Assembly (NCBI GenBank): GCA_008632985.1
Contig: QPGO01000008.1
Location: 724,979-788,978, forward strand
DNA from: Psammoneis japonica
Taxonomy: Eukaryota
DNA: 64,000 nucleotides
Direction: 5' to 3'
The notes under the pieces are model-generated. The model had not been told where the DNA came from. It saw nothing but the letters and a program-made list of their open reading frames with translations, and searched no databases. Below, piece after piece: positions 1,228 through 40,932 of this stretch; within the stretch, counting starts at the first letter, position 1, and every line of letters begins with the position of its first letter. The translations under genes and the position numbers were made by a program.

Positions 1228-1699
1228 TCTGTTTCTGATGGCGACAATTCCTTTGATCAAATGCTGAACGGATCCTCGTTTCAAGCATGGGAGTTAAAGA
1301 ACCCAATGTTAGGATAGTAAAGGACCCAGAATGCAATGTTGCTTCATGCTGCAGCCTCGTCTATCAGTGTTAACTAATTAAAGTATAGGTGTGCACGACC
1401 AAAATAGCAAGCGTCGTTTAGCGTTGTGAAGCTCCCGGCGTTGAACTTCCATGCCGGTCGATGGCTGCCAACCCTTGGTAACCACGGGAGAGTTTGAGGA
1501 CAAAACAACTTTGGAAAAGGTGGCACCTTGACTTTCTTGAACTCTTCATCACGGTGAAGCAGCCAACTAGATTGTTGGTCCTGGGCCACTCGATCTTTGA
1601 TTCTCTTCCAAAAAAAAAGGGTGTCAATCATGTCTTGCAGTCTTTGTTTGTCACTGTGCTTGCCAGCAGTTAGTTTTACATGAAAAATTGACTGACAAA

Positions 1700-2962
1700 A
1701 CCTGCAAAACACTGAACCTCAGGAGATTGTCTCAATTTGCTGAGGTGGCCAGATGATCACAAACACCATCAGCTGACTGTCAGCCAATTGCTGTCAACTC
1801 TCTCTCTCAGGTCCTGCAAGTGCCACATGCAACACTGTCAGATGACAACAGCCACACCACTCCTCCATCTTCCATGCCACTCACCCAAAGTGCAAAACAC
1901 AACAGCCACAGGTCTGAACTTGTGAGCATTTGCAAAGTGCAGTGAACAAACACAATTCTGATAAAATGTCCGCACCGCAACAAACCTGTGTCAAGATTCC
2001 TGGTGCACAAGACAATCCCTTCAATGCCAGATTTCGTTTTTGAGACAACAGCACCAGCCTGGCAGGGCTGGAGGGGAGCAGGCATTGCCATTTCTTGATC
2101 TGACACAACTTGATGAGCCACATGCCTGTTGCTGCTTGACAAGATGCCACCACAGGTCAGTTTCATCCCAGAAGATGCAATTGTCTCTTTTTGTGGTAAA
2201 TTCCTTGTGTGTGAGTGGCAGTGGTGCCAAATTGTTGATGACCCTTTGGGGAGTGCTGCAAGACAAGCCATCAAAGCACTCCTCAACACCACAGCAAAGA
2301 GCTGCAAGAGAACTGTTGCAAGGATCCCTTGACAAGCTGTCAGAGGCAGAGCCAGAACATGGGAAAAGAGCTGGCAAAATGCAGCCACTTTTGGAGCCGG
2401 TTGACGAGTGCAACAAACCCTCTCACAAAAACTTCTGAGATAAAATTCATTTGAAAAGGGAATGAAGCACCACAAAAAACCCTCAAATCCAAACTTGTGA
2501 GCTGTTGAGCATTTTTCAGTGGTTGCAAGGAGATCACTCATGATTCCTTCATCAGAACCAGTGGACCACAAAATGCAAACATCTGGGTTGCTGGCATGCC
2601 CAAAGTCAACTGGCGGCTTCAACCTGGGGAAAATTTGTTTGTGCAAAACAGTTTGCTGGCTCAATTGGCCACTGCAAGAATGAGGACATCAATTGTGTGC
2701 TGGAGTCCATTGACAAGAGCTTTCTTTTCATGGGTGATGAGAAATTGCTGGTCCAAATTGTGGTGCAAAACCTGGCCAATCAACTTTGCTTTGCACTCAG
2801 CTCACCTTGCATCATGAGTCATCAACAACATTGTGAACATTCTCCTGTCAATGGAAAATCAACAGGAGTGCTTTGAAGTGACACCAGAGCCCATTTTTGG
2901 GACATCTGACAGCAGTGTGATCAGGACAAGATGTGACACATTGCCAGGAAACTAAGTTTGGG
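1700..2962. mobile_element. Unclassified, highly degenerate transposon relic (left part of the sequence hit by the Gypsy insertion)
   Basis: TpA- and CpG-depleted. Only Tyr-free Cys/His-rich fragmentary ORFs. Lies directly outside the Gypsy 5' LTR. Confidence 0.45.
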
Positions 2963-2966
2963 TCAG

Positions 2967-3466
2967 GTGCAGCATGCAATGCTGACTGCTGGCAGATGCT
3001 GCATCCCCCATGACATCAAATTTTCAAAGTGAAGCCAGAGTCCAGGGGAAGTGCACACTGCAATTGCCCACACAAGCTTGCACTCACTCCAGTGAGTGGG
3101 AGCATTGGCACAATTGATGGTGTCAATTGTGAGTGATCCATGCAGAGAGGTTGTGCAGCAACTGACCATCAATGTGATGCCTTGGATGCATGAAGACTGT
3201 GTGTGTGAGGCATGTGCTGTGCAGTGCTCATCAAGTCCCAAGCTGAAATTGAAGCAATGCTTTTCATTCATGGATGAACACACTCACACATTTGCATGAA
3301 GAAGTGAGTGTGCAGCTTCCAAATGACCAAAGACATTTCTTGGCCAAATGAGCCAACTCAGAAACATTCTCACAGTTCTTGCAGTCAGCTCTGCAACCCA
3401 TCAACCCACACCCAATTTCAACCACCTGCTTGACACATGAGGCACAGTGTGACATTGCTCCAGCAC
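2967..3466 (+). repeat. Gypsy 5' LTR (approximate)
   Basis: Aligns along its length with 14308-14802, e.g. ATGCCTTGGATGCATGAAGACTG in both. Confidence 0.75.
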
Positions 3467-6400
3467 AAGTGTGTGTCAAGAAAATTTCTTGTGAGACAAC
3501 ACATGCCCCCAATGACAACACATGGTTGTTCAGACACAACCAGCCCTGTGATCACAAAAAAGAGGGTTGTTCCTCCTGTTCCCCTGCAGGAGCATCCTCC
3601 AAAGAAAGAGCTGACTAAAGGCAAGCACCAAAGGCACGAGCTGCACAACATGCCCAATCACAAAAACTGAAAACTGTCCAGTGTGCAAGTTGAGCATGCC
3701 ATGCTTCAGAACTGGAATGTGCAAAGAGTGGTTGCTCCATGCCGCCCACAACTCCAAGCAAAGTCATTCTTGGAAAAACATCATGACCAGGCTGGAAAAG
3801 TGCTTGTTGGCTCACATGCTCTCAGAGGGCAATGCTGTCACAATGTTCAACAACAAAGCATTCAAATGCACACTGCTGAAACAAGTGCCAATTGTGCTGA
3901 GTGCATGATGAAGGCAGTCACAGCAAGCATCTTCCCCATGTGATGACGGCGGCACTTCTTCAAAAATGTTGCTCAAGGTGTTTTGTGCAAAAGCCTCCAA
4001 GATGAAGATTCTGCACTGTGTCATGAGTCATGAGGGCAGCTGAGATCAATGGCTGCTCAAAGGATTTCCCTCCTGTTGCAGAAGGCAGGGATGATCTGAC
4101 ATTGTTGCCAGGTGATGAGCTTGTTGATTTGTTTGAGTGTGGAGTTTTCCAAGTGCATGGCAAAAGCACATGGTCCTGCTCCGTAACTTTGATCCACACT
4201 TGCTCTCACACACTTGCAGAGCTCATTTCATTTTGCAAACAGAATGAGCAAGTTGAAGCCACTGAAGGCAGATTTCTAAAGATGGCTTCTTCTTCAAAAA
4301 CCAATGTGCCAAAAAAGAAAGAAGTGGGGCAAAGGCAAGGATGACCCAGAGCTGCTTGTTGTGGGTCACAAGTGCAGCTCAAAATCATGCCCATTGCACA
4401 GCAAGAATTGTGGCCATTCAACAAATGATTGTCAATCTTTGCAGCATCAAGTCAAATGCACAAAGACTTCACATCCATCTGGGGCCAAAAAGAAAAACAA
4501 TCAAGAGGAGCTGAGTGCCATCATCAACCAGGCAGAGCTGAGAGAAAACACACAAAAGCCCAAGCACACCAAGATTCAAGACAAAAAAATCAAATCAATT
4601 CAAGCCACTGTTGCTTTTGAAGATTCTGATGATGAAGACAAAGGGCACCATGTGGTCTGAGAAGGAGGCCAGCACAACACCTCCAAAAGTTTGGCAGTTG
4701 TTTGAACAAATGTCTTGACACTGCACTTCAATTCCCTGGAAGTCATGCTGCAGGCCAACCCAGAAAATGGCAAAAACTCAAACAGCACATTGTGCCAACA
4801 TTGTTTGCTGCCTTGAAAACCAGCTGCACATGACAAAGGCAACAAAAGTTCAAAAAAGAATTGCTTGACAGTGGAGTGAGTGGCATGCCAGTTGATGCTC
4901 GCCACTGTGCAAAACTCCAACAGAGAAGTTCAGCCTCATTGAAAGCTGGAAAACTGTTGCAGGAGCACTCAAGACCAACCAATGTTGTCTTGTTTGCTTG
5001 GGTGAGCTTCCAGAGATGTCTGAGATGGCTGCTGTTGAATCCAAAGTCCATGCGGACAGGGGCAAATTGGGTGTTTGTGCGACACAAAAGTTGGCCAAGA
5101 CACCCTGGAAAATCTGGGCATTGATCTGGCATTTTTTCATCAGACCACATTGAATGGCCTCAAGCAAATGGGGAGATTCCATCACAACACCCAGATGTTG
5201 CATCCAATGACTCTTTTTGTGCAAGGAATCAACACTGTCAAACAGTGACAGTGAGAGAATCTTGGCCACTGAAAGTTTTGGCAACTTCAACAGGAAAAAC
5301 TGCTTTAGACTCTAAAAGAATGTGAGTTGTTGTTTGATGGCACACCGGGCAAGTGGAAAAGTGATCCTTGCCACATCCAGTCAAGTGCCAAACCACACTG
5401 TGCAAGACTGCAAAAAGTGCTGCACTTCTGCAAGCAGGTGCTGAAAGAAGATGAGGTGAAGCACCCTCCATGCAAGATCAGCACATTGAAGAGGGCAAGC
5501 TGCTCAGAGCAGGTGACACCATTGTTTGTTGTCCCAAAAAAGATCAAACAGCGCAGCTTGTCAACAACTTTTGTGAGCCAACAAACAAGAGAACAAAGCA
5601 GATCCCTTGCCCCTCCCACACATTCAGAGCTGCTCTTGAAACTTGAGGGTTTTCAGTGGAAAATGTTGCTTGATCTGAGTGCTGGCTGCCACCACATGAA
5701 GCATGGCACAGCATTTTGAAAGCTTTGCTCCTCAATTTTTCCATGGGAAAAATGTGAAATGCGGCAATGCCTGCCAACACATTTTTCAAGAGAAAATGTC
5801 TGTTTTTTTTTAGGATTTGTCATTTGTGCACATGTGCATGGATGACCTGCCAGTCATCACAAAAACACATTGGATGATGACCATCCCAAGAAGAAGTTGC
5901 GCACTGTGCTCAAGAGTCTAAAGGATGCTGGACTTGGAGTCAATGCCTCAAAGTGGTTGCCATTCTCTCAAGTGCACTCTCAGAGCATCTCTCAGAAATG
6001 AGGTCACTGGTGAAAACATTTCACCCTTGAGGAAAAAGGTTGAGAGGCCACAGAGCACATTGCCAAGCCAAAGACCAAGAAAAACTTTTGTCATTTGTTG
6101 GCATGGTGAACTGCCACTGCCAAGATCCATGGTTGCACACAGATCAGATGTTTCAGCGGCCCTTGCAAGACTTGCAGCAGGCAGGACCTCCAAGCGGGAG
6201 CAAACTTCCATTGAAAAGAAAGCACTCCAAACCATCAATCAAGTGATGTCAAAGGACACACTTCTTGTGCATCTTCATTTTGACAAGCTGTTCAAACTCA
6301 TGCTGATGCATCCAAATGTCAACTTGGAGAGCAGTGACATCTCAAGACAGCAAACCCACTGCACTTGCCTTTGCAGCAGGAAGCTTGACAATCCTCAACC

Positions 6401-6836
6401 AAAATTTTGCACAGCAATGAAACAAGAGTTGCCTGCGGCCATCAAGACTCTGAAAGAGCTCAGCAGGTCTGCTCTCCTTGGTCATTGCATTGTTGCATCT
6501 CTGATGGTCATAAAAACCTTGTGCACAAAGCACTCAACACCAAATGTGTCCATGTCAAAAGCTGCCACAATTTGGTTGCAGACCATTTCAGTGATCTCTC
6601 AACCTTGAACCTGTGTGGTCCAATGATTGCCAAAACATCCAAAGTGTGTGTCCTCTGCATGAGGAGGCCTTCATGAACAAAAGCAAAGGTGATCATGATG
6701 GATCCTGCTGGTTTCAAGAAAATCCAACACAAACAGCAGAAGGATGAGCACCTGTCTCAATGCTGGCATTTTGCACAGCTGCTCCATGCACTCAATTTGT
6801 GAGGGAGAAACATCTGACAGACAGTTGATTTGTTGT

Positions 6837-7081
6837 TGACAGAAAATGAAGATGACTGGGTGGAAGAAAACAATGACTCCTTGCTGCTGTCTAAATGGCA
6901 GATGAGTCTCCATGCAGAGACCGTTGCAGGAGTCAAAAGACTGGTGTCGTGATGTCGACACTGCTGTTGTTGTTCTTGTGAGCCAAGTGGCTCGAAAGCA
7001 AACTGCATCGCGCGATGTGCGCGGAACTAAGAGCACACACAATCATGTGTGACAAACTAAAATCTTGCTCAAATCCTGTCA
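6837..7081 (-). repeat. Copia-1 3' LTR (245 bp)
   Basis: Matches 11507-11755 with 23 substitutions and one 4-bp indel. Confidence 0.95.
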
Positions 7082-8217
7082 CTCCCCAGTTTGCTTGAGG
7101 GGTCAACAATGACAGATTCGAAGTCGGATTGGTTGAAAGCCTCGGGATCGAAGTTCCAAAACATTAGAGGACAAAGGAGGTTCCAGATTTGGCAGCAACC
7201 CCAATGCTTGCTGAGGATGTCAGCCGGGTTGCGGGAGCCTTCGACAAAATGAAACTCAAGGAAACTGGAGGCAATCACCTCACGCACACGATGGAACGAG
7301 AGGGCGGTGTGTCGCTTGTGTAACTTGGAGTGCGGGATGGCAGCACTGTCCACAACCGACTTGTTGTTTTCCAGGAAGATCATCATTCGCAGGCCACAGA
7401 GAGACACTGCTCCGGAACAGACACTGTCAACGGGCATGTCTGTGAGGTGTCCATCGGCAACAAGCCTTGCTTTGTGCCATCCGTCATGTTTGATTCGGAC
7501 GTGATCTCCCCATTCTCCCATTCAAGCATGATGTTGCAGCTTGAGCCTTTCCAAGAGGGATCATGGGGTGGCAATGGTCCTTCGTGCGATGCGGTGCATC
7601 GGAACTTCCAGAGGGTGGTGTCCTCGTCTTCTTGCTCAATGTGGTGCATGATGTCATTGCAGGCCAGGACTTCCTCATGTTTGTCATTGTTGATGGAGCA
7701 AATGAACTTGACCAGTTCAGGATTGTCTCCAATTTTCCAGTCATGGTCCTCAACGACTTTGATGATGCGGGCTCTGTGGCATTGTCCATCCTCTTGTGGC
7801 TTCATGAGGAAGGTGCATCCTGTGATGTCCTCGGGGTCAAAGACCAGCATTTTGGGCATCCTGATTGCCTCCCCATCTGGTGAAGCTGGCAAATCCTTGG
7901 AGTTGTGGTGGGATTTAATGACAGGTTCAGCAGATTTCTTGTCAGGAGGATCAAGATGCAGGTTTGGAGCAGACGGATCACGGGCGGAGTGCACATTGGA
8001 ATGGCAGAGAATCTTCTGAGTGTTGTCAGAAAGAATCTTGAATGTCATTTGGTGACCAACGTGCTTGGCGATGTGCGGGAGGCCGGCTTTAATGTCGATG
8101 GGAATGACGCATCCATCAACAGTGGTGATGCGCTGCAGACCGTTGGGGACCTTGATGGACCGATCGTTGACATTGTGTTTGTGCACCACTTGAGCTGGCC
8201 GCAAGAGTGTGTCATCT

Positions 8218-8548
8218 CAATGGGAATCATTTGGGTCCTGAGAGTCATCACGTAGAAATTGTGCAGGAGAGTCCAAAAAACAATTGTCATCAGTCTGTCC
8301 ATCCGTCCGTGTGCGAATGTCAACTTCTCGGGAAATCAATTGAAATGCCATCTGATTGACGGCATTTTGATTCACATGGTGAAGGCCAATGCCATCAATC
8401 AGATGGCATTTCAATTCAGTTCCCGAAAAGTCATTGGCTCTGATCACTCTCTCGCATGACATTGTGCACATTTCCACATGATTTTGTGTTTTTCCTTGTG
8501 TGAAAGATCAATTGTGACCCACGCGACATTTTCGAATGATTCCTGTTG
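8218..8548. mobile_element. MITE-like insertion in Copia-1 pol, with an internal long hairpin
   Basis: Interrupts the ILHQ-A-TGKG / THSCGQL motif. 16-bp terminal inverted repeats (CAATGGGAATCATTTG vs CAACAGGAATCATTCG). 43-bp inverted arms at 8324-8366 and 8388-8430. TSD not resolved. Confidence 0.65.
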
Positions 8549-10133
8549 CCCCTTTCCAGTGCAGGCTCACTGGTGAAGGATGGCAATGGCAGGGCCGCGT
8601 TGTGTGTGGATGACACCACCGGCAGTGACAATGGGAATGTCTGCTGGTTGATGATCATTGACACCTTGGACGTCAACGTCATTGGGCTTTGCGTCGGAGC
8701 GGACGGAAGGTGCAGATCCGGGCGGTTTCTCACCAGAACGGGCAGAAGGAGGCTGTTCAGGTGCCAGGAGATGTTGCAAGTCGCCGGGTGGCAGGGGCTT
8801 GTGCCTGGTGAGATGAGCCAGAATGGGGTCAGCATCGGCTGCATCAGCTGCAGCGTCGGATTGTGCGAAGGCTGATGCAAGATCGCAAGTGTTGGCGGAC
8901 AAGTTGACACTGCATCACTGCCAATGTGGAGGTTGTGCAGGTTGACCACCGTCAAGTCATGGCAGTTGCCGGTGTGGGCGGTGTGCGAGCCAAGAATGGC
9001 AGCCTTGGTGGACTGGGGCAAGGTGTCCCAAATGCGCTGATGGTCCGGCGGGATGCGACGCCATTGTTCCTTGGTGAGGGAATTGCCACGAGTTTGTGCA
9101 GCACAAGCTTGGATGATGTCAACATCACTGTCGATGTCAAAGAACACATCGTCATCAGGGTCGTCGGGGACTGGGTCGTGTTCACAGATGGCACGGCACG
9201 GAGCGCGAGGAGCCATCTTGGGGGCGAACGTGCTGTCGTGCTGTGCTGCAGCAGAAAGCAGGAGTCCACAGTGCTCTTCGTAAGAGAGCCCCTTTCCATT
9301 CTGCGTGCAGAACTGATCGGCCTGATTCTTCATGGAACGGAGTTCTTCGATGGGATGAATGGCATTCTCAAGCATGACACATTTCTGGCCAGCAGAGAAA
9401 TGGTCCGCACCCGGGACAAGAGCTTCGTGCTTGCGAAGCTGGTCCTGCCAGTGAAGTGTGAAGGCATGAGTGGATCCTTTTCAGGTGCCACTGCCAAGGC
9501 GAGCAGTGGTGAGGTACGTGAGAAGGGTTGAGGACTCCAGGGATGCGTGAGTGGAAGTGAGGGTGCACTTGGAGAGGTCACAACAGACCACTTGAGCATC
9601 AGAGGAGCCAACATGTTGATGAACAAGTGCCTTGCCTTTGTCATTCTGCAAGATCCGTTCAAACACTGCGAACATGCACTTCTGTTGTTCATCAAACAGG
9701 GCCTTGTCCTCAGCTGCAGAGGGCTTGTACGTCGGGTTGAGAGTGCATGCGATGTCTTGGGAGTGGGCCTGTGCGATGACGGAGGTGTGCCATGTGTGCC
9801 ACTGTTTGTCGGACTTGAGGAGCGCGAAGGCAAGTGGGTCACGTTTGATGCCTCGTTTAAAGTCACACACAGGATCATGTGGTTTGGGTGGCAACAAGCC
9901 AGGAGTGGGAGCAGATGGTGCTGCACCCATGGAGAAGGACGCCACACACTCAGGACTGAGATGACAGTTGGTGAACTCCTCTTGTGTGAACAATTGAGGG
10001 TCATTGCCAACATCCGCGCCGCCGTGCGCTTTTGCCGCATGCAGGCTAATCAACGCAGCCATCTGTGCTTTGTGACCATGTGGCAAAGGCATTTGATTGG
10101 TGCCGTCATTGTGTGCAAGGGCATCCAATTGCA

Positions 10134-10532
10134 GACACGTTCCAGCTCTAGGTGGGACCTCGCACTGCTGCACTGTGACATCAATGGTTTTTTGGATCGC
10201 GTCGCATGTCGCACACGTGCATTTCTGTGTGTCACATTCTACGAAATTGTTTCACATTTTCCCTGTTTTGCGAAGCCAAAGGCTTTCTATTTTCAACAGT
10301 TGTGAGAATGAAAATGCATTGGGTGCATTCTTTAATGTCTGTAGAATGCACCTGGGCAAACTGTCATTGATGCACTCCAAGCATGAAGGAGGAGACACGT
10401 TCGTAAAATTGCCTCTTTTTCTGTTGGCGATCATTCACATTTTCATTGCAGTGTGAAATTACTGCAGAGCTCACACGCAGAATTCTGCGGGCCCAATGTC
10501 ACACGGAGTCCCACCTGGGGCTGGAACCTGTC
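10134..10532. mobile_element. MITE inserted in Copia-1 gag
   Basis: 25-bp TIRs (GACACGTTCCAGCTCTAGGTGGGAC vs GACAGGTTCCAGCCCCAGGTGGGAC) flanked by TGCA on both sides. Removing 403 bp puts gag ORFs 10499-10681 and 9481-10173 in one frame. Confidence 0.85.
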
Positions 10533-10744
10533 TGCATCGGAGCAAAAGTGAAAAGGTCCTGATGCAAATCGGTTCCATCAATGTTGAGGGCGGAGCGCAA
10601 TGGACTGTCTGCGGCTTGATTCAGAACAGTGCCTGGAATGTGCTCGAGGCCATCAATTTGCTGTTGCCTGGTGAGAGCCATGTTGCAACTGGGTGGATGT
10701 CGGAACTGGCAAGAATCAAAGTGTGGGCTTGAAATGACTTGAAA

Positions 10745-10787
10745 CTTGACTTGAATCTTGACTTGAATCTTGACTTGATGTCTTGAA
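10745..10787. repeat. Short tandem repeat (CTTGACTTGAAT x~3.5) in the Copia-1 leader
   Basis: Seen directly; 12-bp period. Confidence 0.8.
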
Positions 10788-11506
10788 CCATCTCAAGAGT
10801 CAGAAGCCGCCGGGCTGTGATGTCCCGTTCGCAGTTAAGTGCCAAGCTTCCCATCCAGTCTGCAGAGTTGTGCCGGCATGTCCGAACTCACAGCTGGCGA
10901 TGCTTTGGGTTGCTTGAGAGCAGAGTGACGGGTTAAAAACCCCTGCTGACAAGCCATCCAGAGGTGGACAAGACCTCCGAACCGTTCTTGTTTTATGTTG
11001 GTTGGACAACCTGATCAGGCCGGCCAAATTTGGCGCTGTGGATGGACGAACAAACGTGGGAAATGCACCCTCGCCCCAATGCAGGCTGCAATCACAAACT
11101 GCTTCCTCTCACAGTTGTCCTCGTGGACCTTGTGGGACTGTAGAAGACCAGCAATCTGGTGCAGATGCAAGGCGGTAGACTTGGCGTGCGTGGAGCAGAG
11201 CCAGACTCAGGGGTTTGTGTCGTGTGCACGTGGACGCAAGCGGATGGATTGGCAGGATCCACTGTGAGGAATCCAGAATCTCGGATGTCTGAGAATTTGG
11301 GAATTCCTGGCCAAACAAACATCCGTTGAACAAACACATCCAACGATGGGAGGCATTGGATAAATCCAAACATGTAGATTTAATCCAGCACCCAGCAGTG
11401 AAGAAGGCAGATGTGTGCTTCCACCACCAATGGTGCACGTTGTCGAAAAATTTCTCGATGACGATGATGAACGCTCAATGGATGATGAAGAGCAAGGCTG
11501 TCAATC

Positions 11507-11755
11507 TGACAGAAAATGAAGATGACTGGGTGGAAGAAAACAACAACTCCTTGCTGCTGTCTGAATGGCAGATGAGTCTCCGTGCAGAGACTGTTGCAGG
11601 AGCTGAAAGACTGGTGTCGTGACGTCGGCACTGCTGTTGTTGTTCTTGTGAGCTGAGTGGCTCAAAAGCAAACTACATCGCGCGCACGACGTGCGTGGAA
11701 CTGAGGGCACACACAATTGTGTGTGATGAACTAAAATCTTGTTCAAATCCTGTCA
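11507..11755 (-). repeat. Copia-1 5' LTR (249 bp)
   Basis: Matches 6837-7081. Flanked by the TSD GTTGT. Confidence 0.95.
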
Positions 11756-13053
11756 GTTGTCAGGACAAAATTTGCACCCCCCAGAGTCATTGCAGAGAAG
11801 CAGCTGACTGAGTGGCACCATGTGCAGCTGCATCATCCAGGAGAGACACATGCAGGCCAGAAAGTGCTGCTGCCCAGCATTTTCTTCACTGGAGAGACAC
11901 AGCAGCACAAACTGCATGCTCCAAATTTCAGCTTGGTTTTGCCATGAGATCCCCTGAAATTTCTCAGGATTGCTGGGCAGTGGTCACAAATGCTGCTTTG
12001 TCATGTGTGCACTGCAGACATGAATGTAAACTCACACGTTGGGAATTCTCCATGCTTCCCCTTGCACAATTTGCCACTCAATGGACTCACACACCAAAAC
12101 CGTGTGACACCACAGCAGACAACACAAGCCAGAGTTCACTCAATGATGTGTCAACTTCTGTCAGCATGCTTCAGCTCACATTGTGTGTTTCATGCATTGC
12201 CATGCTTTGAAAGTCATGCTGCACTGTAAAAAAGCAAGTTGTTCTTGTGCATGATTTTTCCCTTTTTTTTAGATGCCACAACATCCCGTGCATCTGCTCT
12301 CCTCCTAGATCACCATGGGGCCACATGAAAGTTCATAAGATGTGACATGATTTTCATTGCTGAGCCTCTGCAAGGTCCTCTCATCACAAAAGCATCAATT
12401 GCAGTGACTGCCAAGTGCTCGAGTGGGATGGCTGGCTGGGCTGGCAGGCAAAAGCACACCCACCCAAACACAATCACTGCACAATTGCCGCACAATTCGC
12501 TTTTTTTGTTCCCCTCCCCTGGGCCCTTTCAGGTGTTCAGTGCCACAAAACTGCTCTTGTTTCCTGGGTGTTCCCCCAAAAAGGCATGGCAGCTCCTCCT
12601 TGCCTTGGTCATTTGGGTGAGATGTCCCCCAAAGAGGCAAAACCAAGCTGAGCTCCAAACACGCGACTCATGTCAAAGGACAAAAAGGCGCAATCTCAGA
12701 TGTGGGGGCTGCAGTGCAAAGAAAAAAGCAGCAGAAATTGTCCCATGGGAAACCACAAAATTTGCACCCCAGAGTCATTGCAGAAGCAGCTGACTGAGTG
12801 GAGCCATGTGCAGTTGTGCAGTCCAGAAGAGACAAACAAAAAGAAGTTGCTGTTGTGCCCGGCATTTTGACAACTGGTGCAACATGACAGCCATGTTGAA
12901 TCATGTCACAGAAGGTTTAAAAAAAAAGACACAATCTCAGATGTGAGGAGCTTCCCCAAAAGAGGCAGAAAATTGTTCCATGGGAAACCCTTTGAGAGCA
13001 GGTGTGGTTGGAGAGAACACACAGTCAAGAAGTGCAAAAATGAGACGTCTCAG

Positions 13054-13500
13054 TGCAGTGTGCATGCAGACAAAAGGTTGTTTTTGTCACGCCCTTTGTG
13101 ACATTTAAAGGCTGCAACACGTCGCCGTGACACATTGGCTCTCATTGGCAGCTGTGTGTTGCACTCCTCCCCATGTGTCACGCGTCCACACGGCTCTTTG
13201 CTGACGTGTGCTGACACTGCACGGTTTTGGCAGAACAGTGTGGGTGCGTGCGAAGGAACACACAGAACTGCACAGAGTTTTGCGCGTTCGACAGTGATCA
13301 ACGTTGCTGCAGACAACTCCCACTCAGGGTTTCGAACCCCTGGCCTCCTGCCTGATGGTTGCGATGAACCACTCCACTGTGAATTCACAACGCAGCATGC
13401 ATGCAGACAAAAGGTTGTTTTTGTCACGCCCTTTGTGACATTTAAAGGCTGCAACACGTCGCCGTGACACATTGACTCTCATCAGTGGCTGCATGTTGCA
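13054..13500 (-). mobile_element. TRIM-like miniature LTR element (447 bp) with an internal tRNA-like segment
   Basis: Two 110-bp direct repeats (13054-13163, 13391-13500) around 227 bp. PPT CATGGGGAGGAG on the minus strand directly before TGCAAC. Internal A-box-like and B-box-like (GGTTCGAAACC) motifs. Confidence 0.75.
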
Positions 13501-14307
13501 CTTTGCACTTGCGGGCAGGCCAATGGCTGTGGTTGTCCCAGTGGCTGAACAGTTTGAAATTGCCCAACTGACTGCCAAACATGCCAGCATCACAGCCCAC
13601 ATCATCAAACAGACCCTTGGTCATTTTTTTTCACCACCAAGAATGGCGGGCACATGATGCACAAACCGGCAGCCACACCAACTCAACAAGCATGACTCAG
13701 CTTCAGTGCAAATTTGCCATTGGTGAGCTGCAGCCAAAAAACACCTCACCGTGGCAACTCCACTTCAACCAAGGAACTGAGTTCATGGCTGAATTTTCAG
13801 TCAACTGGCTCAAGAAGAGGGCTGTGGTCTCCGAAAGAAACCCACAAGCAAGCAAAATCTGTGGGTGAGCACCACAGTGGAGTGTGCAAATCAGATGATC
13901 AGGAACATGGTGTGGCCATTCTCAGTTCAACACATGTGCAAGCCTTGTGCAGCTGGCAAGGCATTTGACAGAGATGTGATGTCACACACCACACATTGAG
14001 CCACCCAAGTGGAAATCTGCATGGGACAGAAAGCAAAGAGAAGCTTCTTGTTCACACGACAAACAACAAAAAACAAAATGCCGCTGAGAGACAAAACTGC
14101 TGATGTGCTCTGCAGCACAATTGGCACTCATCAAACAAGAACAAAAATCATCATGTGCAGGCCCTGCCAGAGTCATGCAAGTCAATGACAATGGCGCGCT
14201 GCACACACAAGATGGTGTGCCAACAGACAGGTGCAATCCAAGGCACAGCAGGCTGCATTGGTGCATCAGACCATGCTGGTGCTTCATGATCCATGTGACA
14301 GGGGAGC

Positions 14308-14802
14308 ACGCAACATGTGATGCTGACTTCTGGCAGATGCCAGCCACATCTCATGATGCGGAACTTCCAAAGTAAAGCCAGAGTCCTGGAAGAAGTTTGC
14401 ACTGTGACATGCCTGTGTGAGCTTGCACTCATTTTAGCAAGTGGAAGAAATGCTGTGATTGATGGCATCAGCTGCAAGTGCACTGCACAGAGAGGTTGTG
14501 CAGTGACTGGCCATTGACGTCATGCCTTGGATGCATGAAGACTGCACATGCAAGGCATGTGCTGTGCAGCATTTGCCAAGCCCCAAGCTGAATGTGGTGG
14601 AGCAATGCTTTTGCCGCAGTTCACAGGTGAGCATGCTCATGCAGCTGCATGAAGCGAACATGGCTTCCATGCAACCAAAGATTTCTTGGCCAAATGAGCC
14701 AGCTCAGAAATGTTCTCACAATTGCAGTCAACCACAGTCTGTCAACCTGCCCAATTTCAACCATGTGCCCATTGCATGAGGCACAGGAGATTGCCCCAAC
14801 AC
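14308..14802 (+). repeat. Gypsy 3' LTR (approximate)
   Basis: Follows the integrase C-terminus (GPARVMQVNDNG) and the PPT. Aligns with 2967-3466. Confidence 0.75.
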
Positions 14803-14806
14803 TCAG

Positions 14807-16375
14807 CAAAGACCCAAGCTTGGGGGATGTGCTCCAGAAGCCAATGCAGAATCAAGCTGTCCCACTTTGCTCATCCAACTTGGTGTCACTTCAGCTGCAG
14901 TGAATGACCACCATGGCAAGGCCATTTTTTGAGTGACAGGCACCTTCTTTTGCACTCCATTTTGAAAACAGCTTTTGCAAAATGCCCTTGCTCAACCTTT
15001 CTTGGATGCTCCCTCTTTGGAAGAACTTCACAAGATCAGCACGCAAAAGGACAAAGAGTTTGTGGGATGGCTTTTTGCATCAGGCCTGCCCTCCTTGCCA
15101 ACCCATTGAGCAGAGTGGCAAAGTGAAACCACCATGTGCTGGAGCTGCAGTTTCAAGGGTTTCTGGTCGGGAAGTCAGCTGACTCTTGTTTGTGGTGTGA
15201 AGATGTGAAGATGACCAAAGAAGACACTCTTGGCTCTGGACAAAATGGTGTGAGGATTGATGGGCAGTTGAATGTTGTTCTGTTGCAGCTGAAGCATGGG
15301 GCGGTGCTGGGTGCTGGCAGGCCCAACAGCAGCAGAAAGAATGAACAAACATCACAAGCAATTTTCTGGCTGCATGGCTGACCTTTCAAGGCACAGAAGC
15401 ACGCACAAGATTTCACAGTGGAAGGGTTGTTGGCTTTGTTGTGGTCATGTGCAACAACAAGCAATCACCCCATGCAGAGGCATGCTGCCTTTCAGCACAG
15501 TTGACGAGGAGGGAGGGAGGACAACCAATGTGGTGTGGAGCCAGCATCAAAAAGAATTCAAGCAGTCTCATTTCAACAAACCTGACAGGTTGGACCACGC
15601 AGATGGATCAATCTGGCAAGTTGTGACTGGGTTTGGTTGGTGCACCTGTCAAGCCAACAAGAAGAAAACAAGAAGCACCAGAGCAAGAGGTGTGCTGTGG
15701 AGGCAAGACACATGTGCCAATTCTCATCATCATCCTTGGCATCACAAACATTGGCCAATTTCAGCCAGCTTGAGCTCTCAGGAGAGTGGGGTCATGGCTG
15801 AGCAATTGCCACCATTCCATGAAGGGGGGTCAAAATCTAGGCTGGCATGCACCCTCAGCCAGTTCTTGAACCACCTGGGGAGCAAGAGCCATCGCAAATG
15901 GCGGTTTGCCAAACTGCTGGCTCTGTGACAGAGCAACTGCTGGGCTGGTGGAGAGCTGTGGTGCACCATGACCACCCCCAGCACACATTGTTGTGTTGTT
16001 GAGAATTGTCCTGTTGTGCTGGATTTAAAATTCATGACCAGCCACAAACTCCAAATTGGCAACATCTTCCTCAACCCTCCAAGCACACAGCATGCTGTTT
16101 TCTCCCCACGGGCACGCACACTCACACACAACACAAGCAAAGACATTGAGCTGCAATGTTGTCACCAGAATGCACAGAACTGAAATTGACCAGCTTTGCC
16201 ACTCAATTCCAAGGAATGCTGTTGCCACCAATCATGTGCAAGAAATGACAACAAATGATGATGTTTCAGCCTCAGAAAACTCCAATCAACCAACTCACCC
16301 ACTGATCAACTTTTTGAAAAACACAAAACGCTGTGCGGCACCGCGCGGGCGCTGCCACAACTTGCCAAAATGTCT
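14807..16375. mobile_element. Unclassified degenerate transposon relic (right part of the sequence hit by the Gypsy insertion)
   Basis: Same TpA/CpG-depleted composition. No intact ORF. Ends abruptly at ~16375. Confidence 0.45.
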
Positions 16376-16644
16376 GTTAAAACGCACATCCAGTACTGTA
16401 TGTACGGTAACATAACAGCAGTTAGACTGACCTGACTGTCTGGAGAGATCTGGCTTGCGCGTATAATTCTTAATATATGTATATTTTTTATATAATACTC
16501 GGAGGTGGCGTTTATTATGTGTAATTAAAACACGAATAAATTAAAAATGCGACCGGCCAACTTGCTTTGTACCTCGCTCATTTTTTTTCACCGCTCTTTA
16601 TTTTCTCACAATCTCACAACTCACAAATCTTTCACCAAATTAAC

Positions 16645-25803: not shown

Positions 25804-27027
25804 GATTACCGATTATCTGTGTATCTACACTATCACCGCAAAAGCTACGGTCCTTGCTATTCGCTCTTCGACAGGTGTCAGTGGCGTTGCAGATTGCAGG
25901 TCGCAGGGTGCTATTGCTAGCTCTAGAGAAGTATCTTGCAGTAAGTGTGTCGAGTGTCGATGACGCAGATGCAACAAGAGGTGCTATGCAAAGCAAGATC
26001 GCGTGCGAGCGAGTGACGGACGGACTGCCCACGATCTCCCTTTCTATTCTATCTGCAAGTCGTCCGGATCGTTGTTGCCGTGGTGCTGCGGAGTTCATTC
26101 AGTCGCACTGGGTGCTGACTTTACGGCATGTGGGGCCCTGCTCTCTACCAGCTAGTGGCAGGAATTAAAACACTGTGGGTTCCCGTGACTGTTCCACATG
26201 AGAAATCCAGCATCCCCAACAAAATTGTTGTGGTGTTTTGTCGAAGTCAGCAGGCAAGGGTGTTGCCGACCAAGCCCCGCTCGAAAATCTCATTGCGACA
26301 AAACCAGCTGGCACACCTCTCACTCAATCTCTCTTGGCAATGATGTGCCAGAGACACATTGCATGACGCACACATGCCATTCTTGCCATGTCCGTGTCAG
26401 AAATGGGCCAAGGCAAGCATGCGTGCATCATTGCCAAAAGTCTGCAACACGCCGTTGTGCTGCTGGTGTGTCATCAAAACATCGGGCCAGTGGGAGAGAG
26501 CTCTGTTTCTCCCCCTGCTCATGCCAGCTGATGCACTCTCATTGCAGAGCTGACCTTGTCTGGGAGGCTTTCTGATCACAGACATCATCCAAAGAAAGAG
26601 CCTCATTGACTGAGATGTGTTTTTGAGCAGCACCCCCGTGCCTGCAAAGTCTTCCTCTCCATGGGCACCCCAAGCATGTCATGTCATTGCCAACCAAGCT
26701 CTAGACTCACCAGAGTTCAAAAAATCCAGTTCAACAAAACTCTGCTGGCTCTCTCTCTCTCTTCAATTGACTTTCCTTCTTGTGTCACTGTCTCTTCTTT
26801 GTGTGCACAAAAAAAGCAAGAGCAGTGTTGCTTTGCAAGGGTGGGAAGCAAGTTTCCATGCAGCCCCATTGTCTGTCCAACAATGCACAAGAAATCTTGT
26901 GCATGCTGCCTTGACCTTGTGATGGATTTCAAAGTGGAGGACACACATGTGCCGCTCCTCAATGGCCAACAGCGACCACGCAACAGGGCACCTCTAACAA
27001 CCAGACCTTTGCACACAGCTCCACAGT

Positions 27028-30000
27028 TGTCAGCAGACTGGCTGCTGTCTGCAGTCAGACTGTGTGCCAACAACAAGATGGGCTCTTTAGGCAGATGAGC
27101 AGATCTCTCTGAGATCAGCTTCTCTCACTCTTTCTCACTGGCACATGTGTCATCCACTGTCGCCAGTTTGCAGGGAGCTCTTTGGCTTGTTTCACTCTTG
27201 CCATTGGCACTCTGTCAGGTTGTGTCACCCTTTTGTTGCTTCCTCTGACTTTGATTGGGATGCAGAGTCAAAACAGGTCATTCAAGGCACTGGCACCTCC
27301 GCTTGTCTCAAGGACAACACCAGGTGCATCTGCCAAAATGCCACCATTGAAAAACTTTTTTGCTCCACAGGCTGTGGTGCAAGCTCTGCATGTGCATCTT
27401 TGTTTTTTTTAGAAGTCTTGCTTGATGGACATGCAGTTGAATTTGGGTCACAATTCATCTGTGTTGCAACTTCCACCATGATTTTTTGGGCTTGTGAGCT
27501 GAACAAGCATGCCACCATTTTTGATCCTGGAACAGAGTTTTTCACAGCGCCCAAGACAATTCTCTGGGCCACAGAATCACACCAAGCTCTGCATGTTTTT
27601 TTGGCAAAAAATCATCACACCGATCTCACCATGGCACATCCCACCCCAAAAAAGGGCACCGTTGACACCCTTGCCAAGATCTCCGTGGTGTTCAAACCAC
27701 ACACTCACCAATGAGATGCTTCCAAGCACCTGAACAGCTTGCGTGGTGGCTCTGTCATCAATCTGGATTAGTTCTTTGATGATGACAAACATGCATGATC
27801 AAAAGATGGTGTTGTTGATCTCTCAACTGAGCATGTCATTCAAGAGATGATCCTCCCAGAGACTGTGCACCCTGCAGATGAGCTTGCAGTCATGCAGTTG
27901 ATCGACAAGTGCCCTCTGCGCATCACCACTGGAACCGCGGACAACTCTCTTTCTTGCCTTTCTTGTCAGATGCTAGATCACAAGATCAGGACTGCTCTCA
28001 AGATCAAGCATGCAAAGGTGATCAATGCAATTGATCCCAGGAATGTTCATTTTGACCCCAATGTGAAGCACTCACATCAGGATTGGAGTGAGTTTGCTGA
28101 CACCCCACACCCACCAATGTGCGCACCCAAGACCTCTGCATCATCATCTGCCAGTTCAGGTGGACTCACAATCTCTGATTTGATCACTGCTTGGAACAAC
28201 AACCATGCTGCAATGGGCACACCAGCAACAGGAGCTCCCAGTGGATCTAAGACCCCCACTGTGACCTTGTCTTCCAAGCTCTTGTTCAGCCCGGATGCTT
28301 CACCTAAAGATGTCTGTGAATGATTTGACCACAAGGCCAAAGAGAAGGTGGTCCTCCAGAACTCTCTAGTCCAACACTCCAGCAGATTCATGCATCATTT
28401 GGATGGTGCAGACCAGCTTGTCCCACCCAAGAATGGCTCTCCATTTGTCATGACTTTGACCCCAGATCATGAGGCTTCATTCCAAGAAACCAAGCTTGTG
28501 CCATGGTCTCCTCACGGCATTTGTCAGCAGTGCATCAATTTTCAGCATCACGGCACTGACAGTGGCTGCAACATGCATCCCCTGTGGTGTTTCAAATGCA
28601 GCCAAGGTGATGACACAGGTTTCACCACCAGCAATGCCCCCCTGGCAACCATCTGCTGCAACACATGTGCTCAGGTTGCCTCTTGGCATTGCATGCATTG
28701 CACAAGCTCTTGTCACATCTGGACATGCTGTTCCTGAAGAACAGCAAGCTGTGCTGCATTGTGGCCACTTGCGCTGTGGTGGCAATGTTGTTGCTGCAAA
28801 GCCTTGAAACAGATTCTAGATTCTGTTTCAAGTTCATCCAGCTTTTTGCAGCCAATGAAGCAGCAGGTTCAGTTGACTTGTGCCCCAAGCAAGGCAACAA
28901 CCTCTCCATCAATGACTGCTTTGTGCTCTTCAAGGATTTTCTGCAGCCCTGTGCATTTGATTTTGATGATGATTTGTCGCTGGACAATGACAGTGGTGAG
29001 ATGACTGTTTTTGTCAAGAAGGCCAAGCACTCAAAGTTCTTGACCTGTGTCACCAAGAATGAACAAGCCTCTCCAGCTCTTCAGTGCAAGTGCACTGAGA
29101 AGCACTTTGTGGAAACACTTGGCTTGTTTCTCAGTCAAGCTGACAGTCCCCTTGCTCATGAGTCACCAGCCAGTTGAGTGCAGAACCCCTGCCAGTCCTG
29201 CAATTGCTGTCACACCCCATGCCACACAGCTGACATCAGCAGTCTTGATGCAGTTGATCCACCTGAAATGGAACCTGCTCCTGCTGATGATGTCCCTGAT
29301 GATGCTTTGGTCCCACGTGACAACACCTCAGAAACCCTTTGTGATGAATTGGAAGCCATGGGTGTCCCTGCCAAGGACAATGATCGTGTCCTTCATCACA
29401 CTTGCTCAGCTTTGGTGTTCAAGCTCAAGGCACCCCCAGCAGAAGCCACCAAACATCCATGTTTGGTGTGTGCACTGGCAACCATCTTTTTGATGATTGT
29501 CCCATTCTGCAGAGTGACCCTCTTGCATCAAGGATTTTCACATTTGCTTCTGTCAATCATTGAAACATGAAGCCACTCAGCATGCTGCTGCCTTCAATGG
29601 CACCCAAGGACTCTTGCCTGCTGGACAGAATGGGCAAGCCACCTCTCTTGCTAAATCTCAGCTGGAGGATTTTCAGTCGGGCCATCGCAGCCAGTTTTGG
29701 ACCAGGGACGCAGCCCGTCATCTCCTTTCTGAGACAAAACAGATGACCATGGGGGCAACTGTGAAAGAGGGACTCACCATTCCATTGCCTTTTTGGACCT
29801 GGGATGCAGCCTGTCATCTCCTTTCTGAGACAAAACAGATGACCATGGGGCAACTGTGAAAGAGGGGCTCACTGTTCCGTTGCCTTCCACTGACAAACCT
29901 CATTCTTCACAAGACAATTTCATCCAGAATTGCGTGAGACACCTGTCCTCCAATGTCACCTGATGTCAAGACTCTCACAAACAGGTGCTCCACGCAGTCA

Positions 30001-33000
30001 ACGGTGAATGGAAACAAGACTTCTTCACAGTGGATTGTTTCTTAAAATCCAAAGACCAAGGAACCTGCAAGCATGTTGTGAAACATTGCATGCAAAAAGC
30101 TCAAGACATCATCATCCATGGTCAGCTTGACAATGTCAAGTGTTTTGCCCATCCTTCAATCTTCCCAGAATTGAGTGAGACACTTGATGCAGCAATGTTG
30201 GAACTCAAAACTGCTGACCTCAAGCTTGGAAAAGAATTCAATGCAGTGGTGGGACACACAATTGATGCCCACAAAGAGAACCCAGAGCATGCCATGAAGA
30301 AACAACACAAGCTCATCCCCTGAGTGTGCCAAGATGTTCCCTTCAAGACACACCTTGAGGACAAGGCACCAGCCGCCCCAATCTCTTGAGGCTGACACCA
30401 AACGTGCACTTTGGCATCAACGTCTTGGCCATCCCAGTGATCACCACTTGCATGACACCCACAAACATGTCAAGGGTGTTCCCAAGCTTGCTCATGGTGA
30501 ATCTCCTTTGGACACTTGTCCTGCTTGCATTTGTGTGAAACAGAGACAAAGAGCCCTGCTGGCCCCAACTCCACACACACCGTGACCCAGGCCTGTCAAG
30601 GACCAACAGTGGATTTTGCTTTCTCCAGTGTCAAATTGAAGAATGAAGAATGTGCAATGGATTGTGCCAGCCTCAATGGAGAAACTTGTTGGATTCTCAT
30701 TTACAACCACCACACCCGTCATCTCCAATGTGCCTTGATTGAACATGACATCTTCTCCCCTCCTCCTCTCCCACCAAAAAAGAAGAGCATGTCCTGGAAC
30801 CAACCATGGCAGATGCATGAGCTGTTGCTGAGCTGTGTTTCCCTCACATTGATTTCTCTGTGCTTGACAATGTGGAATCTGAATTCCTCCTGACAATTGA
30901 CCATGCAACACACGGCACTTTCAACAGTTTTGTGATCTTGTCTCATGCCATCACACTGGAAGAGCAACCTCTGAACAGTTTTCCTTGCAACTGCCTCAAG
31001 AAACTGCCTGCATGGGACAAGTGGCATGCAGTGAATTCAAATGCTCAATCATTTTCATGCCATGGGCATGTTTGGTGCACCAATCAAGTGACCAAATGAT
31101 TCAATTGCACTCTGTCCCAATTGGCAGTGCAATGTCAAGATGGATGGCACTCTGTGTTCTTGCTGTTGCTGTGGTGGTTCCTCATGTGCTGCTCCTGCTT
31201 TGCACTGTCTTCAGTCTGCCCATTCCTCCTGCATGGAACAACTGATGCAACATGTGTTTTTTGCACCATCAGCTTTGATGGGATGCCGAGTGCACTCTGG
31301 TGATGTGCAGGATGCTTGTGCCCACTCACCTCATCCTTCAACACCAGTGTTTGTTCAGATTGATGAGGCTTGTGCCACATGGCAATTGCTTTGGTGTTGA
31401 CTTGGGAAGGTCTGTGGTGCTGCTGATCCTCCATGCCTTGCAACAAGGACACCCAGAATCTGGTGCACATTGGGAGAATCACATCAACAAGATTCTTGCA
31501 GATGCCAAACCATTGTTTCACAACACTGCCCATCACAAGTGCATCCATGCCTCCATGTTTGAAGGCAAGCAGATCCTCCTCCTCCATCAGGTTGATGATT
31601 TTCTGACAGCATGTGAAGAGGAATTGCACACCATCAAGATTTTGATGCCATTGGTGAAGTCCTCTGCCTCTGGGCAAAGACTTGATCTCTTTCAAGTGCC
31701 TTGGCCCATGCAATGAGTTCAATGGTGTGGACATCCACCAACATGATAACTCACATCAATTGCATGCTGTGCATGTCTTGATCAGGTCCTCACATCACAT
31801 GGTTGGCTTGTCCCCGCTGCTGATGAATTGGACACTGATTGTCATGCTGCTTCCCTCCCAGTTGAGTGTGTTTCGAAACTGTGCTCCGATGTTGGACCTG
31901 TAAATGCACTCCCAAACATGAGGAACTTGCTGAACTCCATGGTTTTGGCTGTCAAAACCTGCTTGGTGAGTTGTCAGGTGCCTGCGTGATTTGTCATCCT
32001 GACATTGGTCATGCCATCACTGCCCTGTCAATGCCCTGAAAGGCCTTGCGAAGTGTCTTCATCACAACAAGCATTGGGGTGTCAACTGCAAGACACCAAC
32101 CAAGGACACCACACAGCTGTTGCACTCTTTTGAATGATTGGAGTTGGACCCCACCCTTCTGGAGTTCCCTGTTGCAGATTCACCTGCTCAGTCACTTGGT
32201 TTCTTGGATGCAGCACATGGCAATGACCTCTGCAACTGTCGCTCCACTGTTGGTGGCTGTGAGTGCATGCTTGCTGGTGCCACCATTTTGCATCAGCGCA
32301 AGATGCAGATGGTTGCTGCAATGAGCTCTGCTCAGGTGGAGTTCCATGCAGCTGGCACTGCTGCCAATCATGCCCTGTGCCTCTGCTCAGTCCTTTGGGA
32401 ACTTGGTTTGCCCAGGATGGCCCCACCCTTTGTGTGTTGACAATGAGCCAGCCATCAAGATCATCAATGACCAGATCCCTGCAATGCATTCCCACCATGT
32501 TGATGTTCAGTGGTTCACAATTCAAGACTAAAATGAAGCCAGGCATGTTGTCACTTGACACACTCCTGGCACTGTCAACGTGACCTTGCCAAGGCTCTTG
32601 GATCCATGCTGCATGCACGCCATGCCATCGGATGATGGGACACTGTCAATGACACTCTGTTCTGCTCAACTGTGTCTTCTCTAGAGCTGCCCTGGGTTCC
32701 TTTTCTATCTGTTCTCTTTTTGAGTCATCTGGTTTGACCTGTGTTCCTTTGATTGTTGATTGTTTCCTGTCACACCCTCCTGTTTTTTCTGTCTTTGACC
32801 CACCACATTGGCTTCGGAGTTGACATGCTGCTGGATCAGGGGAGGGCATCAGCAGACTGACTGCTGTCCATGGTTAGACTGTGTGTGGATGACAGATGGA
32901 CTCTTTAGATGGACAAGCAGCACAGATCTCTTTGAGATCTGCTTCTCTCACTCTTTCTCACCAGCGCACGTGTCATCTGCTGTCACTGCTGGTTTGCAGG

Positions 33001-33044
33001 GAGCTCTTCAGCTTGTCACTCTCACCATCGGCATTCTTCTGTCA
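27028..33044 (+). mobile_element. Ty1/Copia (CoDi-like) LTR retrotransposon, degenerate
   Basis: LTRs 27028-27217 and 32847-33044. PPT AGGGGAGGG 32838-32846. TSD ACAGT/ACAGC. GAG-pre-integrase LWHQRLGHPS, RT ALQQGHPESG...QVDDF, RNase H FLDAAHGNDL...SS-VEFHAA. Confidence 0.92.
29695..29887 (+). repeat. 96-bp tandem duplication inside Copia-2
   Basis: TTTTGGACC...CATTGCC unit at 29695 and 29791. Confidence 0.9.
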
Positions 33045-36704: not shown

Positions 36705-36830
36705 CTCTCCCTGGGGAGACAATTTTGTGAAAGAGTCGTTGTTCCAGGGCCCATTGCAGCCAGAGCCTCTCCCTGGGGAGACAATTTTGTGAAAGAGTCA
36801 TTGTTCCAGGGCCCATTGCAGCCAGAGCCT
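36705..36830 (+). repeat. 62-bp tandem duplication
   Basis: Two copies differing by one CG/CA change. Confidence 0.9.
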
Positions 36831-40834: not shown

Positions 40835-40932
40835 GAGTGCCCCCATCAAGAAAATGGCATGGGGCCCTGGAGTTGTGTCGCTGAGAGCCCCCAACAAGAA
40901 AACAGCATGGGGCCTTGGAGTTGTGTGCCCAG
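40835..40932 (+). repeat. 48-bp diverged tandem duplication
   Basis: GCATGGGGCC(C/T)TGGAGTTGTGT repeated at 48-bp spacing. Confidence 0.8.

Follow-up and report, generated by a model that had tools for sequence, protein, structure and literature searches.

We analysed a 64,000-bp window of the Psammoneis japonica contig QPGO01000008.1 (positions 724,979 to 788,978 of the forward strand; coordinates below count from the first letter of this window), in which a long terminal repeat (LTR) retrotransposon, Copia-1, lies inside the first of three transposon islands. We consider it likely that two transition processes, one specific for TA and the other for CG dinucleotides, wore down Copia-1 and the islands in place and at the DNA level. 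Global alignment of the left LTR (6837-7081, 245 bp) with the right LTR (11507-11755, 249 bp) gave 23 substitutions, all of them transitions, with no transversion and one 4-bp indel, exactly as the initial annotation of this element had counted. The same site classes were also obtained, namely three sites with TA opposite TG (6893, 7005 and 7029), six with CG opposite TG or CA (6912, 6922, 6953, 6994, 7016 and 7022), five doublets in which TG in one LTR faces CA in the other (6874-5, 6934-5, 6984-5, 7044-5 and 7053-4) and four transitions outside these classes (6933, 6958, 7032 and 7068). Transitions at 23 of 23 sites would occur by chance with P = 9e-5 if two-thirds of substitutions were transitions, and with P = 6e-3 if their share were 80%. 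CG, TA, TG and CA steps hold 19 of the 23 changes and make up 126 of the 245 aligned positions. Both LTRs have TG...CA termini, and because the same 5-bp target duplication, GTTGT, flanks each of them, they belong to one insertion. The substitution pattern is unusual, yet it is not unique among related elements. The sole indel is a CGCA unit present only in the right LTR (11683-11686), opposite 7012/7013 and within a CGCGCG run, and it has the appearance of a slippage event in a short CG repeat.

What the LTRs show is one sample of a pattern that extends across the islands. Observed/expected dinucleotide ratios were computed on four old island segments (2001-6836, 11756-16000, 26501-33000 and 35501-41000), where TpA was 0.03-0.06, CpG 0.07-0.21 and TpG and CpA 1.75-2.00, while the other 12 dinucleotides stayed at 0.79-1.33 and GC content was unchanged. 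The corresponding ratios for genes in the window were 0.57-0.60 for TpA, 0.96-1.03 for CpG and 1.1-1.2 for TG/CA. Copia-1 is intermediate, with TpA of 0.10 and CpG of 0.63; when it is included, TG/CA ratios are 1.6-2.0 across the islands over a TpA range of 0.03-0.10. The longest TA-free run in the islands is 1403 bp. Island edges are sharp to 100-200 bp: at 41200 the number of TA per 200 bp rises from 0 to 11, and at 16400 it rises from 3 to 23. An intact TA-rich promoter region lies ∼100 bp past the right edge of island 1.

Copia-1 is nested in an older transposon. Two ∼500-bp degenerate direct repeats around it, at 70.7% nucleotide identity and 90.8% identity in a two-letter purine/pyrimidine alignment, in which transitions are ignored, contain 29 TG/CA doublets and are probably the LTRs of an older element of ∼6.9 kb without Copia-1. 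This host element is more depleted (CpG 0.07-0.21) than its nested guest (0.63), and the two thus form an age series. Moreover, TG and CA are randomly interspersed in every island, as in genes (runs-test z of -0.46 to 1.04), and tests for strand tracts, which would indicate processivity, were negative across the islands, with no long one-strand tracts. Because the LTRs differ, both strands were struck in an interspersed manner and the older host is more depleted, the change must have taken place in the chromosome, and the proposal that the changes were made in genomic DNA after integration is upheld.

Direction and separation of the TA and CG losses

A library-wide search returned 1528 relatives, 15 of them 825-1913 aa long. 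The 15 long intact homologues contain 2.9-5.3% Tyr and 0.2-2.7% Cys, and were used to polarize changes in Copia-1. With strict columns (at least 8 homologues covering and at least 60% agreement; 133 columns), none of five conserved Tyr was kept in Copia-1, four having become TGC or TGT and one TGG, and only three of eight conserved Arg were kept, the others having changed to CAT, CAC, TGC, TGT or TGG. Other residues were fully kept (Trp 4/4, His 6/6, Asn 5/5, Lys 8/8, Ser 8/8, Pro 9/9 and Ala 5/5). Looser thresholds gave 312 columns with 89 off consensus, of which a single transition can explain 42, while 29 require a transversion and 18 at least two changes; among the 42 single-transition changes, 10 are at ancestral TA and 17 at ancestral CG. 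This comparison with homologues is the reason why TA and CG both appear to be ancestral, and both to have gone to TG or CA. The claim that TA was an ancestral target thus gains indirect support, from the replacement of Tyr by Cys or His and from the island TpA of 0.03-0.10 compared with 0.6 in genes, and at the three TA/TG sites of the LTRs the change probably ran away from TA. On the Copia-1 sense strand, ancestral TA changed by A-to-G six times and by T-to-C four times; because both occur, editing of sense RNA alone or of minus-strand cDNA alone is ruled out. The sense (minus) strand also carries 566 CA and 426 TG, and its ancestral CG sites show 13 G-to-A and 4 C-to-T changes; these two excesses may reflect an asymmetry linked to transcription or cDNA.

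To separate the two losses, we used the 79 related Copia loci found by a metagenome scan with alignment of a conserved segment. TpA is 0.45-0.97 in 76 of the 79, hence the Copia family is not natively TA-poor. The three TA-depleted loci are L078 (0.02), L064 (0.05) and L055 (0.31), and in another ten TpA is normal (at least 0.45) and CpG is below 0.35. Conserved residues were then scored in Copia-1 and in 13 of the 79 loci, 14 sequences in all (Table 1). In L078, L064 and L055, as in Copia-1, conserved Tyr codons turned into TGY or CAY, and in the control loci they were retained; Tyr retention in six undepleted loci was 76-89% and Arg retention 81-96%. L005 retains Arg despite an overall CpG of 0.23. 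Because some loci lose Tyr but keep Arg and others do the reverse, the TA and CG losses are separate processes that coincide in this genome, and L078 and L064 are independent examples of TA-only hypermutation. The contigs of these two loci (2766 and 1319 bp) have only 3 and 4 TA dinucleotides, with Arg codons kept. LTR-like pairs in related loci have transition:transversion counts of 101:66, 68:33, 36:22, 45:35, 19:1, 12:1 and 11:5 and 0-3 doublets each, so that their spectra are ordinary or CpG-dominated; several exact terminal repeats among these pairs are probably assembly overlaps.

Table 1. Conserved Tyr and Arg residues kept in Copia-1 and in related Copia loci
Sequence	Tyr kept	Arg kept
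Copia-1 (14-sequence test)	1/6	4/9
L078	1/25	27/29
L064	0/10	13/15
L055	12/26	29/31
L008	28/30	23/38
L010	22/23	17/29
L062	33/34	37/45
L005	34/36	44/45

The loss of TA depends on its neighbours. We expressed the survival of each sequence context as the density of a 4-mer relative to that of the same 4-mer in genes. ATAT and ATAC have a survival of 0 in Copia-1 and in the old islands alike, ATAG of 0.04 and 0.02 and ATAA of 0.07 and 0.05, compared with 0.36 in both for CTAA and 0.94 and 0.30 for TTAA. The surviving TA sites are of the form pyrimidine-TA-purine, and the target is therefore a TA preceded by a purine or followed by a pyrimidine, A/T flanks being lost faster than G/C flanks and ATA/TAT fastest of all. 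Because the AT-rich TTAA is spared, simple duplex melting is unlikely to be the cause, and a sequence-reading enzyme is the more likely agent of TA loss. A strict rule in which a single flank sets the mutated base was tried and rejected, since the main replacement of Tyr is Cys in Copia-1 and L055 and His in L078 (11 Tyr-to-His and 5 Tyr-to-Cys). Trinucleotide enrichments around TA are weak. For CG, decay is fastest in ACGA and TCGA, whose survival in Copia-1 is 0.44-0.46, and slowest in ACGT, CCGG, CCGC and GCGC.

The doublets bear on the same question. The argument that a TG/CA doublet requires an ancestral CG or TA struck on opposite strands holds, and the two ancestors can be weighed by their expected numbers. 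Six conserved and six single-hit CG sites in the LTRs give a loss probability of 0.33 per copy when CG sites are treated as homogeneous, which predicts 0.75 visible CG-derived doublets compared with the five seen (P = 0.001 for five or more). A context model, which uses the context-specific losses of Copia-1 and genic 4-mer densities as a proxy for the ancestor, expects 4.67 doublets, 0.92 of them from CG and 3.75 from TA. When counts and contexts are combined, three doublets have a probability of 0.59 and two of 0.76 of descending from TA, which amounts to ∼3.3 of the five, and a model with flat priors gives a mean of 3.2. By these model estimates, about three of the five doublets come from TA.

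The warning that LTR dating would overestimate the age of Copia-1 is also borne out. LTR divergence is 0.094 overall and 0.034 (4/119, all four differences being transitions) outside CG, TA, TG and CA steps, an inflation of 2.8-fold. With a background of 0.017 per lineage, the loss amounts to ∼1.9 per TA step (∼110-fold faster) and ∼0.35 per CG step (∼20-fold), if starting densities were gene-like and all loss followed insertion. Diatom LTR insertions have been dated with one constant substitution rate, according to the available part of a recent preprint (bioRxiv 10.1101/2025.10.24.684338); constant-rate dating would inflate the age of Copia-1 ∼2.8-fold.

Explanations weighed

In the explanation that we favour, Copia-1 would have inserted into an older element in a transposon island with LTRs that were identical at insertion, and two dinucleotide-specific transition processes would have acted on both chromosomal strands, halting sharply at the island edges. 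The first would convert CpG to TpG or CpA through deamination of 5-methylcytosine at ∼20 times the background rate, and, as the transposons of diatoms carry CpG methylation, it is probably methylation that drives the CpG loss. The second would convert TpA to TpG or CpA, that is, A-to-G on either strand, at ∼100 times the background rate. Because both processes would end in TG or CA, the LTRs would diverge by transitions only, and a doublet would form where both LTR copies were struck on opposite strands. Targeting would follow silent chromatin rather than sequence homology. For the chemistry of TpA loss, enzymatic deamination of adenine on DNA is a tentative suggestion beside a modified-base or other route. 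Bolder, and in our view rather unlikely, is the proposal of a dedicated diatom genome defence, in which adenine would be deaminated at chromosomal TA steps (TA-pyrimidine or purine-TA, with TTAA spared) in silent transposon domains, independently of cytosine methylation, by the same system as in Bigelowiella natans, and which would be old and widespread in the stramenopile-alveolate-Rhizaria (SAR) supergroup. If that were true, the erasure of transposons would be rapid enough to hide most old copies from similarity searches, and LTR clocks would be unusable.

Several points weigh against two processes of this kind. The polarity of the individual LTR sites is inferred indirectly. The remaining TA sites of L055 show no flank preference, and the flank motif may therefore be specific to one lineage. 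A strict flank rule predicts doublets at purine-TA-pyrimidine, and none of the five has such a context; read as CG, the doublets are ACGA (three) and CCGA (two), and ACGA belongs to the fastest-decaying CG contexts. With flat priors, an all-CG origin of the doublets keeps a posterior of 8%. Some of the TA loss of Copia-1 could predate its insertion. Finally, all 23 LTR differences can be written as C-to-T or G-to-A, and at each of the three TA/TG sites CTA faces CTG, as expected of deamination in a CHG context.

The last point leads to the rival that survives best, which we nevertheless hold to be improbable. It attributes the 23 LTR changes to cytosine methylation alone, from 5-methylcytosine at CpG (16), CHG (5) and CHH (2); at the three TA/TG sites CTG would have given rise to a new TA, and another source would account for the low TpA of the element. 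Besides the ACGA and CCGA contexts of the doublets, two of the four other transitions are in CCG, and decay of CpG only is common among the relatives (10/79 loci). The expected number of CG-derived doublets, under either the homogeneous or the context model, is nevertheless far from five, and methylation leaves unexplained the TpA of 0.03-0.10, the long TA-free runs and the change of Tyr to Cys or His. Moreover, the remaining TA sites are TTA as often as CTA, and deamination in CHG cannot yield TTA. Plant-like CG/CHG/CHH methylation alone was dropped as the main explanation on the dinucleotide table and is kept as a rival.

A second rival, more doubtful still, is a scan triggered by homology in a premeiotic or sexual stage, similar to fungal repeat-induced point mutation (RIP), which would mutate both copies of a repeat at TA and CG and not at CpA. 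The sharp island edges are as in RIP, the islands hold related repeat families (87-93% identity in purine/pyrimidine code), and a diatom DNMT4 is reported, in the available part of that paper, to group with the fungal RID enzyme (PMC9998398). RIP, however, makes TpA and the islands lose it, and no same-strand tracts are found in the islands. This rival bears on the trigger only and is otherwise compatible with the two processes proposed above.

It is very unlikely that the pattern is an assembly artefact, in which a long-read base-caller would have systematically misread the modified bases of silenced DNA and no polishing would have followed. At modified sites, base-callers typically read A as G and C as T, and such miscalls could give TG or CA at random, confined to modified domains. 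The window nevertheless has genes with long intact frames (696, 591 and 569 aa), and the TA-free Copia contigs L078 and L064 occur independently in two environmental assemblies, which together make an artefact unlikely; island repeats, moreover, differ also by transversions and indels. Least credible of all is pre-integration editing, in which ADAR-like or APOBEC-like changes in the transcript or cDNA would be fixed by reverse transcription, because, despite the CA and G-to-A excesses on the Copia-1 sense strand, it cannot make the LTRs of one insertion differ, and it has against it the occurrence of both A-to-G and T-to-C at ancestral TA, the mixture of Tyr-to-His and Tyr-to-Cys in L078, and a host element that is more depleted than its guest.

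Copia-1, the islands and neighbouring genes

By its LTR ends, target duplication and polyprotein relation, Copia-1 is an LTR retrotransposon of the Ty1/Copia superfamily (Table 2). A GGGGAG purine run adjoins its left LTR on the sense strand. The open reading frame (ORF) 7383-8216, coded on the minus strand, has 18 relatives, of which one comes from the diatom Attheya and one carries RVT_2, and RVT_2 is also present in three scanned members of the 15 long relatives. Pieces of Copia-1 match the homologues P0141, P0140, P0263 and P0017, which carry PF07727, at 40-65% identity. By tblastn, the residues of P0141 (1881 aa) that are matched are 101-439, 522-643, 1060-1256, 1383-1423 and 1801-1871; with the RVT_2 domain at residues 1367-1577, these gaps mean that the reverse transcriptase is mostly deleted (∼1424-1800), as is much of the integrase region. 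Copia-1 thus lacks the intact reverse transcriptase and integrase of an autonomous element, and it is a dead, internally deleted, non-autonomous derivative that is a Ty1/Copia member by descent. Pfam searches with six Copia-1 ORFs found no family, and a degenerate LTR pattern, with Y or R at each pyrimidine-purine step, had no match in the metagenome contigs.

Table 2. Features of the window, with positions counted from its first letter
Feature	Position	Strand	Basis or remark
Target-site duplication, left copy, GTTGT	6832..6836	.	identical to 11756-11760
Copia-1 left LTR, 245 bp, TG...CA; 3' LTR in element sense	6837..7081	-	minus-strand protein matches
Copia-1 internal region, degraded gag-pol	7082..11506	-	tblastn of intact homologues
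Copia-1 right LTR, 249 bp; 5' LTR in element sense	11507..11755	-	LTR alignment
Target-site duplication, right copy, GTTGT	11756..11760	.	identical to 6832-6836
Transposon island 1, host of Copia-1	1600..16350	.	TpA 0.03-0.04, CpG 0.07-0.21, TpG/CpA 1.75-2.0 outside Copia-1
Transposon island 2	26200..33500	.	TpA 0.05, CpG 0.13
Transposon island 3	35600..41200	.	TpA 0.06, CpG 0.08
Degenerate direct repeat, partner of 14308-14802	2967..3466	+	nucleotide and purine/pyrimidine alignment
Degenerate direct repeat, partner of 2967-3466	14308..14802	+	nucleotide and purine/pyrimidine alignment
LTR-like pair, island 2	27028-27213 / 32847-33037		77% nucleotide and 93% purine/pyrimidine identity, 11 TG/CA doublets

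Repeat families common to the three islands have 87-89% identity in the two-letter alignment and are unreported by ordinary blastn. Two-letter matches link 3026-3175 with 40426-40580, 14619-14783 with 40185-40365, 32876-33045 with 39703-39867 and 37006-37261 with 39901-40171, and island 3 holds inverted purine/pyrimidine-coded matches to repeats of islands 1 and 2. Old copies at ∼70% identity, which is 91% in purine/pyrimidine terms, are easily missed, and recoding of this type offers a practical route to hypermutated copies.

In all six frames the islands are crowded with overlapping ORFs of 180-350 aa, which have no Tyr, 7-10% Cys and abundant His. These long ORFs are meaningless, because TA-free DNA cannot hold TAA or TAG, and they are a trap for gene callers. 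Pfam found no family in nine island ORFs, and intact Copia polyproteins matched Copia-1 alone and nothing in the other islands; hence only their repeat structure identifies those other islands as transposons. TA is already at 0 per 200 bp along the left edge of island 2 (26201-26600), where CG persists in part (7 and 4 per 200 bp), which indicates either a wider reach of the TA process than of the CG process or a younger fragment.

Between the islands, the host genes at 22252-24027 (+) and 24094-25803 (-) have normal dinucleotides although they come within ∼400 bp of island 2; among their products are a Sir2-family deacetylase whose N terminus bears a zf-UBP finger, and a DUF6937/DUF6938 protein. 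A glutaminyl-tRNA synthetase gene (58724-60814) is 70-80% identical to proteins of Seminavis, Odontella, Cyclotella, Thalassiosira and Nitzschia, and as these named sources are all diatoms, the host is a diatom.

Comparison with known systems

In fungal RIP, C is changed to T mostly at CpA, so that TpA goes up and GC goes down. The present pattern resembles that of ascomycetes in its transition-only, sharply bounded decay of repeats, which inflates their apparent age, and differs from it because TpA is removed, GC is unchanged and strand tracts are absent; the signature of RIP is thus not what the islands show. APOBEC3 and ADAR act on one cDNA strand or on RNA, and both LTRs are then affected alike. 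The deamination-type transitions with a neighbour preference are shared with these enzymes; however, the LTRs of Copia-1 differ at 23 sites and both strands were struck, rather than one strand with changes common to both LTRs. According to the available part of a preprint on Bigelowiella natans (bioRxiv 10.64898/2026.01.13.699255), ADAR has a preference for U before the A that it edits.

Among diatom elements, the nearest comparison is with the CoDi Copia elements (Maumus et al. 2009, PMC2806351). So far as the available part of that paper describes them, Copia-1 is like them in that its pieces match RVT_2-carrying diatom-type polyproteins, and unlike them in that its reverse transcriptase is largely deleted; in that part, RIP, deamination, hypermutation and dinucleotide are absent as terms.

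The CpG half of the pattern is known biology. DNMT5-dependent methylation of transposons has been described in a diatom (Hoguin et al. 2023, PMC9998398, in the part available), and the change of CpG to TpG or CpA here is likewise confined to transposons, more advanced in older copies and faster with AT flanks. The ratio falls with age as expected, from ∼1.0 in genes through 0.63 in Copia-1 to 0.07-0.21 in its older host. CpG decay does not, however, account for the loss of TpA.

For that loss, a literature search found no report of TpA-directed hypermutation in diatoms, and a search on 5-hydroxymethyluracil in diatoms gave matches of which, among those listed, all were on dinoflagellates. The one parallel is B. 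natans. As described in the available part of the preprint cited above (bioRxiv 10.64898/2026.01.13.699255), two integrated viral regions in its mutation-accumulation lines mutate ∼1000 times faster than the rest, the de novo changes are almost only A-to-G or T-to-C at TpA, and reverse-transcriptase and DDE domains are enriched in TpA-poor coding sequences; Mettrop et al. proposed an ADAT2-like DNA adenine deaminase. In both hosts, A/T-to-G/C transitions at TpA give TpG or CpA according to strand, are restricted to foreign or repeat DNA, which here means the islands, and lead in the long term to TpA loss with a gain of CpA and TpG. The two cases differ in that B. natans is a chlorarachniophyte (Rhizaria) and the present host a diatom, that its targets are giant-virus and virophage integrations with TpA still at 3.3% and 9.2% instead of LTR-retrotransposon islands that are almost TA-free, and that its mutations were seen to arise in the lines, while ours are read from sequence. 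The available part of that preprint contains no flank motif, no CpG component and no mention of diatoms. The TpA half of the pattern would thus be a new occurrence, in a new lineage and a new target class, of a phenomenon described once, in this 2026 preprint. On this reading, TpA-directed hypermutation would extend to a second major lineage and to retrotransposons, its flank preference would be a constraint that any enzyme candidate must explain, and TpA loss would be separable from CpG decay.

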